Source: Dehalococcoidia bacterium
Lineage (GTDB): Bacteria > Chloroflexota > Dehalococcoidia > UBA2979
NCBI GenBank assembly: GCA_965262725.1
Contig: OZ253555.1
Location: forward strand, 2,976,001-3,040,000
Length of the DNA stretch: 64,000 nt
Reading direction: 5' to 3'
The position numbers were made by a program, and so were the translations under genes. A model generated the notes under the pieces. It searched no databases. It was given only the letters and a program-made list of their open reading frames with translations, and had not been told where the DNA came from. This document shows positions 1 to 61,193 of this stretch, one piece after another. Numbering within the stretch: the first letter of the stretch is position 1; each line of letters begins with the position of its first letter.

Positions 1-497
1 CGCCGTGATTTCACGGATGCGGTCCCGCGCCCGCTGCATCGCTCGCCGTGAGGGCCAGCGTGCGAGGAACTGGATATTCTTGTTGCGCTTCGCACGTACC
101 CAGCGATGCTCGAAGCCGAGGAACTCCAGCCCCTCGCCTCCCTCCCGCAGGTGCACGATGCGCGTCTTCTCCGCCTTGAGCTCCAGTCCGAGCTCACCCA
201 GCAGGTCACGCAGCAGGGCCAACGCCCGCTCCGCTTCCTCCCGGCTCCGGCAGAGCACCACGAGGTCATCCGCATAGCGCACCAGCACGCCATCACCCTT
301 CGCCTCCCAGTCCCGGTCCAACCGGTGCAGGTAGACATTGGCCAGCAGCGGGGACATCACCCCGCCCTGCGGCGTACCCGTCGCGCTGTGCTGCACGACC
401 CCCGACTCCATCACACCGGCACGCAGCATCGCCCGTACCAGCTTCAGGAGATTGCGGTCGCATATCCGTTCCTCGACGGCCGTCATCAGACGGTCGT
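1..497 (-). CDS. ltrA: Group II intron reverse transcriptase/maturase, 3' part (runs off window; absent from ORF track)
   Basis: Manual translation: (H)DRLMTAVEERICDRNLLKLVRAMLRAG..GTPQGGVMSPLLANVYLH..LVRYADDLVVLC..EKTRIV..EFLGF. YADD at 276-265; frame open to base 1. Confidence 0.92.
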
Positions 498-1359
498 GTA
501 GGGTCAGGGGCTGGCGCGGTGCGAGCCGTAGGCGGTGGCGCATCAGTTCCAAGCCGGTTTCCCGGTGGTGCCCAACTCCACGGCCATAGCAGCGTCCGTC
601 TCCAGCCCCTGCCACATCGAACCGGACGTGAGGTTCTCCCTCATCCGGCTCACCGATGCCCTTCACCAGATGGCATGCAGCGCTCCCCACAACGTGGGTC
701 GTGCCTTGGCCAGCCGGTACAGCATGTGCGGAGAGCCTCGAACCCTACCAAGTGGTTGCTAGCCCCGAGGGGCACTCACCAGTCCACACCCCCAGCAACA
801 TGCACGGACAAAGTAGGGGTCCTTCCCATCACCGGCGGTTATGTTGTCCGTCCGGCTCCAGCGGTACTACGACCCCCTCCGCCACCCTTCCGGCTGGCTG
901 TCCACTTCCCGGCTCTGACCGGTTATAGGACGCCTCGCTCCGACGCCCTCTCACAGGGTGCCGGGCCGGGGAGGGCTTCTCCGGTTCCCGTCGCTACCTT
1001 CCGTACGTTCCACGTCCCATACGCCGGGAGGTTTCTTGAGGCTGCATTCCAGGATCTTCACCTCGTCCATGGCCTTCGCCCTGACCACCCGGGCTCGGCT
1101 CCTCCTTGGTCCTGTCAATAGACAGGCGAGTCTCACGGCGCGGCAGACTTCGCGTCATGCTGCGGACCGCACGTTTGCTCCCCCTCATAGGGCTCTTGAC
1201 GTCGGGCTTCGACGCAGACCGTTTCCCGTCCACGCCGCCGACCTGCTAACGGGCCTCCTGACAGTTACCCGTGCCGGACTCTCACCGGCTGGCAGCAACG
1301 AGCATGTCTCCGGACCGGTCACGTCATCACGTCACCACCCCTTCGACTTCCGGACGCAC
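498..1359 (-). mobile_element. Inner ORF-less group II intron (862 nt) nested in the RT gene
   Basis: 5' GUGCG at 1359. Domain V GAGCCGGAUGAGGGAGAACCUCACGUCCGGUUC at 651-619 with AGC triad. Domain VI stem CAGGGGCUGG/CCAGCCCCUG with adjacent A; 3' end ..CCUAC at 498. Removal joins C|AC to give His in FESIPHDRL. Confidence 0.92.
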
Positions 1360-1924
1360 GCGGTATCGACTCGAAACACGAGGCGATGTCCGTCTCCACT
1401 ACCCACCGCCTGCCCCGCCACGCCTCGTCAATGAGGACCTGCAGGGCGTCATGGGCCGAACGCTTCGGGCGGAAGCCGAAGCTGCATGGCAGGAAGTCGG
1501 CCTCGAAGACCGGCTCCGTCACGAGCTTCAGCGACGCCTGCACGATGCGGTCGCGGACCGAAGGAATCGAGAGCGGGCGCTCTTCCGACCGACCGGGCTT
1601 GGGTATCCAGACCCGGCGGCTCGGCTGCACCCGGTATCTTCCCTCCTTCAGTTCCGTGGCCAGTTCATCCAGCAGGCGCTCCACGCCGTAGCGCTCGACC
1701 TCGGCGAGCGTGACGCCGTCGATACCGGCTGCGCCGCGATTGCGACGCACCTGCTCCCACGCGCGCTCCAGAATGTCTCTGCGATAAACCTTGTCGTAGA
1801 GCGCATGAAAGCGTCTATTGGGGTCGGCCTTGGCCGCCCGGTAAAGCGTGCGTTGTAGTGTTCGGACCTTGTCTTGGATGGAGTTAGCCGCTTGGGCACT
1901 CACCGATTCATCCCTACTCCCCAC
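1360..1924 (-). CDS. ltrA: Group II intron reverse transcriptase/maturase, 5' part (start GTG 1924 or 1903)
   Basis: LYRAAKA, AAGIDG, WIPKPG..RPLSIPSVRDRIVQ, SFGFRPKRSAHDA, WVVETDIASCFESIP; homology breaks exactly at GTGCG (1359). Confidence 0.92.
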
Positions 1925-2521
1925 GCGTGAGCAAAGCAGGGGTCCTTCCCATCACCGGCGGTTGTGTTGTCCGTCCGGCTCAAGCGGTACTACGACCCCC
2001 TCCGTCACCCTTCCGGCTAGCTGCCCACTTCCCGGCTTTGACCGGTTATAGGGCACCTCGCTCCGACACCATCTCGCAGGGTGCCGGGCCGGGGAGGGCT
2101 TCTCCCGTTCCCGTCGCTACCTTCCAAACGTTCCACGCCCCTTACGCCGGGAGGTTCCTTGAGGCTGCAGCGCAACGCGCATTCAGGATCTTCACCTCGT
2201 CCATGGCCTTCGCCCTGAATTGCCGGGCTCGGCTCCTCCACTATCCGTTAACGACGCGGCAGGCTTCGCTTGATGCTGCGGACCGCCTGGTTGCTCCCCC
2301 TGATAGGGCTCTTGACGTCGGGCTTCGACGTGGACCGTTTCCCGTCCGCGCCGCCGACCTGCTAACGGGCCTCCTGACAGTTACCCGTGCCGGACTCGCA
2401 CCGGCTGGCAACGACGAGCATGTCTCCAGACCGGTTACGTCATCACGTCACCCGCCCTTCGACTTCGGGACACACCAACCTCACCGGATATCTCAATCGC
2501 ATTTCCAATTCAGGACACTAG

Positions 2522-3802
2522 CAGGGTGCTGAAGAAGCTCCTTCCGGGGGCCTCGGAGCGGTGCCGGGCGGCTTGAGAGGCCACGTCCGGCTTCGTGATC
2601 GCCGTCTCCTGACCTGCCCCCGGCGGCCTCGGAGGGCTCCTGGACCGGCCGTAGGGCGCAGTGCGCCCTACGCCGTGGCAGCCTCGAGCCTGGCCATGCG
2701 CACCAGGTTGTAGGCGGCGGCGGTGAGCTCCAGCCAGCAGCGGTTGCGCTCGCGGCCCACGAAGCGCAGCTTGCGCCCGCCGCCCACGGTCTTCATCCAG
2801 CCGAAGACCTGCTCCACGATCGTGCGTCGCTTCTGACTCTGCCTGTAGCCGCGATGCCGCGTGGTGCGCCCGTCCACGGCGCTGCGGCGGCGGCGATCGT
2901 GCTGCGCCACGCCGCGCCCGCGCAGTTCCGCCACGAAGTCGCGCGTGTCGTAGCCGCGGTCGGCGCCCAGCGTCCCGCAGCCGCTCACGCTGCGCTCCAG
3001 CATCGTGACCGCCGCCTCGCGCTCGGCGTACCCGTTCGCCTCGGTCAGCTCCAGGTCCAGCACCAGACCATGACGGTTCTCGGTGAGCAGGTGGCCCATG
3101 TAGCTCAGTCTCGCCGTCTGCCCCGACCCTTTCGTGTACAGCCGCGCCTGCGGGTCCGTGCCGGAACTATGCGTATCGCGGCGGCGGCGCCGCCCCCGGA
3201 AGTCGACCTCCGGGTTGCGCCCGCCCGGGGGTGTCCTGCTCGTCGCGCGGGCGGTAGCTCTTGAGCGAGGCCCAGGCCTCCAGCAGCGTCCCGTCCACGG
3301 TGAAGTGGTCGGCGGAGAGCAGCCGACGCCGCCTGGCCTCGGCCACCACCTCGGCGAAGAAGGCGCGCGCGACATCGGCAGCGAGCAGGCGCTCGCGATT
3401 CTTCGAGAAGCTGGAGGCGTCGAACGGCTCGTCTGAGATGTTGAGGTCGAGGAACCACTTGAACAGCAGGTCGTAGCGCAGCCGCTCGCAGAACTGGCGC
3501 TCGCTGCGGATCGAGTAGAGCGCGATCAGCAGGCTCGCCTTGAGCAGGTGCTCGGGCGGGATCGAGGGCCGGCCGCTCTTGCTGTACATCGTGCCGAACA
3601 GCGGTGAGAGCCGCTGCAGCGCGGAATCGACGATCGGTTTGATGCGGCGGATCGGGTGGTCGTCCGGGATGAAGGCGTCCGGCGTCACCGCCAGCAACAT
3701 GTTGGTCTGACGCTCAGCGTCGCCTCGCATGGGGCGCCTCCAGGCTACGCCCCCGCCGCCTTCGCTATCCTGCCAGACGGCTGACCCTTTTTCAGCACCC
3801 TG
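2522..3802 (-). mobile_element. IS5-family insertion sequence (1281 bp) with CTAG target duplication
   Basis: Terminal inverted repeats CAGGGTGCTGAA (from 2522) and TTCAGCACCCTG (to 3802). CTAG at 2518-2521 and 3803-3806; DDE transposase inside. Confidence 0.9.
2668..3730 (-). pseudogene. IS5-family transposase, frameshifted near 3230
   Basis: N-half (GRPSIPPE, SERQFCERL, VDGTLLEAWAS) and C-half (TDPQARL, GADRGYD, VEQVFGWMK, AAYNLVRM) lie in different frames, joined at a C-run. Confidence 0.8.
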
Positions 3803-61117: not shown

Positions 61118-61193
61118 GGGCCTGTAGCTCAGCTGGGAGAGCGCCACACTGGCAGTGTGGAGGTCAGGGGTTCGAGCCCCCTCAGGTCCACCA
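61118..61193 (+). tRNA. tRNA-Ala(GGC)
   Basis: 76-nt cloverleaf; anticodon arm CCACA-CTGGCAG-TGTGG; G3:U70; GTTCGA; encoded CCA. Confidence 0.97.

Follow-up and report, generated by a model that had tools for sequence, protein, structure and literature searches.

At one end of the 64,000 nucleotide (nt) stretch of Dehalococcoidia bacterium DNA analyzed here (the window; contig OZ253555.1 of assembly GCA_965262725.1), the gene for a group II intron reverse transcriptase (RT)/maturase breaks off within its catalytic core and resumes 862 nt further on. The question raised by this locus is whether the intervening DNA is itself a group II intron, nested in the RT gene of a relative, and, if it is, how it reached that position and what its presence would mean for the RT. 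The window corresponds to G000:C1:2976001-3040000 of a single-contig genome of 3,674,403 bp with 70.6% G+C, and feature coordinates given below are window positions on the minus strand unless otherwise stated. The locus is very probably a genuine group II twintron, in which a non-autonomous inner derivative homes into the RT gene of the outer intron, a member of what is here called family A.

The first part of the RT/maturase open reading frame (ORF; 1360..1924) specifies amino acids (aa) 1-188 and the first base of a His codon, ending in ...DIASCFESIP, and the second part (1..497, running off the window) continues from aa 189 with H-DRLMTAVEER and includes the PQGG and YADD motifs. The 5' junction reads ...TTCGAGTCGATACCGC/GTGCGTCC... 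at 1360/1359 and the 3' junction ...CCCCTGACCCTAC/ACGACCGTCTG... at 498/497; these break and resumption points had been given in a preliminary description of this DNA and are exact to the base. Excision of 1359..498 by script joins the exons as ...DIASCFESIPHDRLMTAVEER... and yields DIASCFESIP-H-DRLMTAVEER within an open frame of 452 aa carrying PQGG and YADD; an open frame through these motifs after excision had been anticipated in that description. The insertion point falls in RT motif 3, upstream of YADD and of the maturase (X) domain, and domain profiles are cut at the same place: exon 1 matches positions 1-83 and exon 2 positions 89-204 of Pfam RVT_1, while the corresponding matches to TIGR04416 are 2-137 and 140-299. 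The two halves score 172.4 and 177.9 bits against TIGR04416, for which the cut-off of 300 bits is set for the whole protein, and an uninterrupted homolog from a relative (G003) scores 396.5 bits. A GIIM maturase domain is present in the off-window tail (L103:3708-4001), and the protein ends 37 aa past it. In the 450-aa G003 homolog, Pfam gives RVT_1 and GIIM only, with no endonuclease domain, and by this domain content the RT is of an endonuclease-less group II lineage, which leaves its group membership unaffected.

The interrupting element is an 862-nt, ORF-less intron (498..1359) with boundaries of the group II type (5' GUGYG, 3' AY), starting with GUGCG at 1359 and ending with ...CUAC at 498. 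Its domain I (D1) core (1155..1291) matches all of Rfam group-II-D1D4-4 (model positions 1-138 of 138) with 102.8 bits, well above the gathering score of 49. An exon-binding site, EBS2 (GACUCG, 1127..1132), pairs with the intron's own 5' exon at about -14..-9, and EBS1 (GUGGU, 1084..1088) lies in the loop GCCC-GG-GUGGU-CA-GGGC. Domain V (D5; 619..651), recognized by Rfam match and by fold, has the AGC triad and a 2-nt bulge, and shows three compensatory pairs among four related introns. Domain VI (D6; 498..615) is unusually long (~118 nt), with a fold z-score of -4.9 and a bulged branch-point A at 504, seven nt from the 3' end; both stem and bulged A are conserved in all four related introns. 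With 37.5 bits, the D5-D6 region scores below the gathering score of Rfam Intron_gpII (40), compared with 41.5 for the outer intron, a shortfall that is explained by an insertion of ~95 nt in D6. The EBS loops did not appear in a minimum-energy fold of the complete inner intron (z -2.3), and this fold was set aside. These features support the identification of the element as a group II intron ribozyme, and domains V and VI are present as the preliminary description had stated. Its reading of the locus as a twintron likewise stands, since the insert has its own boundaries and catalytic domains and its removal restores a frame that is continuous in all of the 80 best homologs.

The outer intron runs from window position 2475 to G000:C1:2975540 and is 2936 nt long in all, or 2074 nt once the insert is subtracted. 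Its 5' ribozyme part (1925..2475) starts with GUGUG, comprises D1-D3 and the start of D4, and matches group-II-D1D4-4 over 2407-2271 (93.7 bits). EBS2 (CGGAUA, 2247-2242) and EBS1 (CAAUU, 2222-2218) were located by complementarity to, and covariation with, the intron's own 5' exon. The remaining features lie off the window, beyond window base 1: D5 is at G000:C1:2975660-2975692 (Intron_gpII D5/D6, 41.5 bits), followed by the 3' end at G000:C1:2975540, and the RT stop and maturase domain are also found there. The 5' exon (2476..2521) is the last 46 nt of an insertion sequence (IS), and contains the intron-binding sites IBS2 (TATCCG, 2490-2485) and IBS1 (GGTTG, 2480-2476). This IS, which we take to be IS630-like, is 1180 nt long and has a 385-aa transposase frame on the opposite strand. 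The intron is inserted 46 nt inside the IS end, antisense to the last transposase codons, and its exons are therefore non-coding. An identical 46-nt flank is found at all 12 family A copies in the genome and also in IS copies that are unoccupied; there are 14 vacant homing sites for the outer intron (e.g., at G000:C1:741951, 1529923 and 2582071) against 12 filled ones, the vacant sites reading GATATCCGG[C/T]GAGGTTG-TCAAGG (hyphen at the insertion point) with minor variants. The 5' and 3' flanks of the window's copy come from different IS variants, a sign that intron copies may have recombined. Immediately upstream of the IS that holds the twintron is another IS (2522-3790), whose transposase (DUF772 and DDE_Tnp_1) is split into two overlapping frames (3730-3167 and 3375-2668) and represents a frameshift or a pseudogene.

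Inner and outer introns are close relatives. The outer 5' part (window 2475-1932) shares 86.3% identity with inner positions 1-551, in line with the resemblance seen in the preliminary description, and the outer 3' end shares 89.3% identity with inner positions 666-862. When aligned with family A, a second family (B) and the intron of G003, the inner intron is seen to retain an ORF remnant in its D4 (697..780); in total, ~110 nt from the start of an RT ORF survive (window ~780-697; the homologous region encodes ...TLYRAAKADP). This is followed by a deletion of ~1.2 kb and then by the last few dozen bases before D5. At the level of these alignments, the inner intron is shown to be an ORF-deletion derivative of an RT-encoding intron. 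Family A is 86% identical to it in the 5' part and 89% in the 3' part, the G003 intron 83% and 90%, and family B 79% and 81%. As none of the RT-encoding relatives examined is more than ~90% identical, the inner intron is no fresh deletion of family A; by this comparison it is a separate ORF-less lineage, the autonomous parent of which is not in the genome.

The whole genome was searched by blastn, and by tblastn with the script-spliced RT. There are 28 copies of the inner intron, of which 24 are full length and 100% identical; three others are split by later insertions, and one aligned over 857 nt at 99.9%. All 12 family A introns carry it at the same base (between 1116 and 1117 of 2074), and all three family B introns carry it at the homologous base, even though family B differs considerably from family A (84-86% DNA identity in exon 1, 72% protein identity in the second half of the RT). 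The remaining 12 inner copies are at ectopic sites. Copies of family A differ from one another by at most two in 1116 bases; both RT halves are full length in 10 of the 12, and six of the 12 have received no other insert. Additional insertions are present in every one of the three family B copies, and several intron copies already bear IS insertions. No uninterrupted A/B RT junction was detected in the genome, either as a spanning blastn match or as joined 14- to 30-mers, which occur 0 times. The preliminary description had called for a search for uninterrupted RT genes and additional inner copies; its view of the inner intron as a hyperparasite is strengthened by the 28 copies, the occupation of 15 of 15 RT sites and the fit of the 12 ectopic sites to EBS1 and EBS2. 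One family A RT gene (G000:C1:549500-551223) contains two inner introns head to tail, probably through a second insertion at the still-intact exon 1 boundary, as the alternative 5' exon, the end of the first copy, pairs at just 4/5 and 1/6 positions.

A third family, C, has about 14-16 copies (14 by DNA, with a further estimate from the D5 count) and encodes an RT that is 38-40% identical to that of family A. In about 10 family C genes, tblastn matches the RT over its full length in one piece, a result that includes no separate check for stop codons. The main copies of this family (e.g., G000:C1:1849781-1851697 and 2029222-2027306) appear to start with GAGCG rather than GUGYG, and have six extra bases, CGCGAA, after a ...CCCTAC that resembles a normal 3' end. 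A census of D5 by regular expression was noisy, and repeated D5 sequences alone were counted; these give ~60 group II copies in 3.67 Mb (27+1 inner, 12 A, 3 B, 13 main C and ~6 others). The genome is unusually intron-rich for a bacterium, and also contains several high-copy IS families. At one locus (G000:C1:732582-737446) nesting is triple, with a family B intron containing an inner intron that in turn contains a 1923-nt, RT-encoding family C intron, the last inserted in the apical loop of the inner domain V (between inner positions 722 and 723). The related genome G008 has three A-type loci (G008:C1:842637-850210, 2482157-2490226 and 2659492-2663357) where domain V is split at the same position by ~1.9 kb containing a C-type RT. 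From the positions of these inserts, the catalytic domain V of one intron lineage seems to serve as a homing target for another.

How the inner intron selects its target can be read from four introns (inner, A, B and that of G003), which were aligned around the EBS1 loop, GCCC-NN-[5 nt]-CA-GGGC. The EBS1 and EBS2 segments vary among the four while their surroundings are conserved. In each intron, EBS1 is complementary to the final 4-5 bases of that intron's 5' exon, and EBS2 to a partner 3-4 bases further upstream. In the inner intron, EBS1 GUGGU faces an exon end of ACCGC and EBS2 GACUCG faces CGAGUC. The corresponding pairs are CAAUU with GGUUG and CGGAUA with UAUCCG in family A, ACCCU with CGGGU and GAGUCC with GGACUC in family B, and GGAAU with CUUCC and AGCCA with UGGCU in the G003 intron. 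The target in the window's RT gene (1360..1373) comprises IBS2 CGAGTC (1373-1368) and IBS1 ACCGC (1364-1360), and pairs with the inner intron at 5/5 EBS1 and 6/6 EBS2 positions. Covariation of EBS1 and EBS2 with the 5' exons in all four introns thus indicates homing of the inner intron to the sequence encoding FESIP/H.

The ectopic sites follow the same rules. IBS1 pairs at 4-5 of 5 positions in 12 of 12, and at eight of the 12 IBS1 and IBS2 are in register with at least 9 of 11 pairs, the rest having CGAG(U) shifted by 1-2 bases; ~1% of 200,000 genome positions, as a random background, score at least 9/11. The homologous site of family C pairs with the inner EBS at just 1/5 and 3/6 positions, and is unoccupied. 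The ectopic loci examined were L094 (G000:C1:537614; the following positions are also on G000:C1), L095 (1018206), L092 (317969) and L098 (1822597), and further L102 (3058071), L097 (1524130) and L096 (1302815). Open frames across ectopic sites are unreliable at 70.6% G+C, and Pfam-supported contexts alone were kept. Ectopic copies are antisense in a phosphotriesterase-family gene and in a histidine kinase gene, the Pfam profiles of which are split, and are in sense orientation in genes for an RNase_T exonuclease, a very large cadherin-domain protein, a DUF429 protein (weak match) and a family C RT. A copy within an essential gene would have been proof of splicing in vivo, but the one next to the sole NAD kinase gene was rejected as such, since it sits outside the coding sequence, 20 nt upstream of the ATG and ribosome-binding site.

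Cumulative GC skew places the replication origin near 0.40 Mb and the terminus near 2.51 Mb. The strand with leading-strand sequence holds 24 of the 28 inner copies, a count in which those nested in family A are not independent of host orientation, and 11 of the 12 ectopic copies (two-sided binomial p = 0.006). Of the four inner copies on the other strand, two lie no more than 30 kb from the origin or terminus. Such a strand bias is expected for endonuclease-less introns primed at replication forks.

In relatives, the RT gene is uninterrupted at this position. Among the best 80 homologous loci from other species, many of them Actinomycetota by record title, the RT is continuous across residues 188/189 in every case, and it is also continuous in four loci of three relatives of the same bacterial family (G003, G008 and G018). 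The RT of G003, a member of the same genus, is 87% identical in amino acid sequence over residues 2-452. The target sites of these three relatives are near-perfect (4/5 and 6/6 pairs) yet empty. A full-length, ORF-less relative of the inner intron was not found in the other 40 genomes of a first search, and was present in one (G361) of 400 other genomes sampled from the class. G361 belongs to another genus of the same family and has two identical 911-nt, ORF-less copies (G361:C1:1859038-1859948 and 1972909-1973819; L109 and L107), which are 73% identical to the inner intron, lie outside any RT gene, keep 56 nt more of the ORF start and differ in the 5' deletion breakpoint. A search of G361 found no A/B-type RT gene, and a C-type RT (41% identical) only. 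The two copies were rejected as evidence of mobility without a cognate RT, since both are 17 nt inside one larger repeated element.

We propose the following course of events. EBS2 (GACUCG) and EBS1 (GUGGU) of the inner intron would pair with the 14-nt stretch CGAGUC-N3-ACCGC of the RT gene, which encodes FESIP/H, and the intron would reverse-splice into this target with RT supplied in trans. In this way it would have filled every such RT site in the genome, and retrotransposed to look-alike sites as well. An insert in an ORF located in D4 should leave the core of the outer ribozyme undisturbed. Insertion in outer D4 would accordingly spare that core while cutting the RT upstream of YADD and the maturase domain, and production of full-length A/B RT would depend on RNA already freed of the inner intron by splicing. 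On unspliced RNA, translation of exon 1 meets a stop after 13 codons of inner-intron sequence, ahead of motifs 4-7 and the maturase domain. Because the insertion is upstream of YADD and the maturase domain, full-length A/B RT needs the inner intron to be removed first, and to this extent the preliminary description was right that maturase production requires inner splicing. Traced back from exon 2, the reading frame is free of stops across D6 and D5 as far as a GTG at window position 690, from which an unspliced protein with motifs 4-7 and the maturase domain could in principle be made, but this open stretch of 64 codons upstream of exon 2 may well be due to chance, given the 70.6% G+C. We infer that the inner intron would splice in vivo and would use the A/B RT, and its mobility may be primed at replication forks; the feedback gate on mobility put forward in the preliminary description is conceivable. 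The identical copies produced in a burst, and the intact splice-site pairings, indicate that the system worked very recently, while the 14 outer homing sites still empty, against 12 filled, would allow that it has since been throttled or has died.

With ~60 intron copies and many IS, the genome is rich in repeats, and a wrong joining of two intron copies could in principle create an apparent nesting. Many public sequencing runs contain this DNA, all in the form of contigs that break at repeat borders, and none of these contigs bridges either nesting junction by at least 31 bases per side, the rule adopted here. In run X1, the contig from exon 2 extends 27 bases into the inner intron and another stops 2 bases into it, both under the 31-base rule and not bridging; the depth of the exon contig is ~224 and that of contigs unique to the inner intron ~501-506, a ratio near 28:12, where depth is not copy number. 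One contig of X8, a run of unknown kind that includes diverged relatives, joins 497 to 1360 and skips the 862 nt (GT..AC), its shorter side having 29 bases, and is most likely an uninterrupted homolog and not evidence of splicing. Misassembly, which had been named as a possible refutation, is effectively excluded by the occurrence of the same nesting at 15 independent loci with different flanks. These loci belong to two diverged host families, and the junction both restores a conserved protein motif and fits the inner EBS1 and EBS2, all of which, with the X1 contig that enters the inner intron from exon 2, makes the chance of an artefact negligible.

Other observations weigh against a functional twintron driven by its own RT. 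The RNA-type runs X19 and X20 cover D5-like stretches and short inner pieces (263 and 179 nt) and no junction. EBS3/IBS3 was not identified, and the base 5' of EBS1 fails to pair with the +1 A. Assembly polishing could have slightly exaggerated the perfect identity between copies. A maturase is usually required for splicing in vivo, yet here the maturase gene is the one interrupted, which is a difficulty for the start of the system. The RT/maturase could be supplied instead by the ~10 apparently uninterrupted family C genes, and the 14 good but empty outer homing sites may mean that the A/B system is inactive at present. A rival proposal is that the ORF-less intron invaded the last intact RT copies and shut off the supply of A/B RT, so that the twintrons are inert fossils in which nothing is gated. 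That none of the 15 A/B RT genes is uninterrupted, that vacant sites persist next to the 12 occupied ones, that several copies have already received IS insertions, and that no spliced RNA was seen (the RNA-type runs covering short inner pieces only) would all agree with such a dead end. It is nevertheless unlikely in view of the 24 inner copies that are 100% identical and the family A differences of no more than 2/1116, which point to very recent activity, the intact splice-site pairings (11/11), D5 and D6, and the six of 12 family A copies that are free of further damage.

Less probable again is a foreign helper, in which the family C RT splices and mobilizes the inner (and perhaps the outer) intron and the interrupted A/B RT is irrelevant to its spread. 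The ~10 family C RT genes with single, unbroken tblastn matches would be able to provide it, and G361, with its two identical ORF-less relatives and a C-type RT, has no A/B-type RT that was found. As both G361 copies are in a larger repeated element, they offer no proof of mobility there. Intron-encoded proteins are usually specific for closely related intron RNAs, which counts against a C-type RT only 38-40% identical to the A-type. The inner intron also retains D4 around the old ORF start, the expected binding place of a cognate protein. For comparison, the cross-acting proteins of Thermosynechococcus elongatus are 84-100% identical (PMC2882425).

Twintrons of this kind are known from Thermosynechococcus and Methanosarcina, and the concept, as the preliminary description pointed out, is not new. 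The 2003 study of nested introns in Methanosarcina acetivorans by Dai and Zimmerly reportedly speaks in its title of homing into related intron ORFs. In T. elongatus, the ORF-less TeI3 interrupts the TeI4 ORF region downstream of the first ATG and upstream of the second, from which a protein can still be made; of eight ORF-containing introns, five are twintrons and two others have continuous ORFs, the inner copies are identical, and trans-mobilization was shown (Mohr, Ghanem and Lambowitz 2010, PMC2882425). The present system is similar in that an ORF-less deletion derivative keeps ORF remnants, has identical inner copies and homes into a conserved site in the D4 ORF region of RT-encoding relatives. 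Diverged EBS define families in both, other copies lie in IS, and trans-mobilization by the RT of relatives is presumed. It differs in that insertion is in RT motif 3, so that full-length RT needs splicing, in the occupation of 15 of 15 genes, and in an endonuclease-less RT, whereas the T. elongatus proteins have an endonuclease domain and the host is a cyanobacterium. In M. acetivorans, nested arrays were formed by homing into related intron sequences (PMC4424553); repeated nesting and non-coding flanking exons are shared with the introns described here, but M. acetivorans is an archaeon and its arrays reach up to five levels (summaries in PMC4424553 and PMC2882425). The Trichodesmium erythraeum twintron T.e.I7/T.e.I8 is also bacterial and of group II, and splices sequentially in vivo with the inner intron first (Pfreundt and Hess 2015, PMC4649490), the behavior proposed here, although its two introns are distantly related, have an ORF each and interrupt a host protein gene at a single locus. 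Twintrons of Euglena chloroplasts resemble the present ones in that the inner intron is removed before the outer unit can function, but are organellar and degenerate, and the inner intron often interrupts ribozyme domains and not a protein gene (PMC4424553). The kind of element itself is established; the present case stands apart in that the insertion falls in the catalytic core, that two diverged RT families are fully occupied, that the EBS covary clearly in four introns and that there is further nesting. The host lineage may also be new for such twintrons, and the closest RT homologs, among the best 80, come from Actinomycetota records; a search of one collection of papers, with supplements outside its scope, gave nothing relevant on an actinobacterial twintron or a group II 'hyperparasite'. 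Elsewhere in the window, a tRNA gene on the plus strand (61118-61190; Rfam tRNA, 64.9 bits) is unrelated to the twintron.

Group II introns that lack an ORF and exploit the RT of their relatives are models for the way in which spliceosomal introns came to depend on common trans-acting machinery, and here the dependence would be mutual and complete, with every A/B RT gene carrying the parasite in its catalytic core and the base-pairing rules of targeting readable directly from four covarying introns. It is an attractive but rather doubtful further proposal that the ORF-less intron has captured the whole RT supply of the lineage, producing an obligatory two-step circuit in which RT and parasite splicing each require the other, and which is self-reinforcing and all-or-none. 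If true, such a loop would be silent until a little RT appears and would then give a burst, a behavior that would fit the many identical inner and family A copies, and the genome would be a natural model for the rise of shared trans-acting splicing machinery and the introns that depend on it. If the inner intron splices in vivo, the system would provide a natural test of whether hyperparasitism throttles or synchronizes bursts of retroelements, of whether a twintron moves as a unit, and of how an intron population without an intact RT gene restarts. With ~60 intron copies in 3.67 Mb, this genome is a compact subject for such work.

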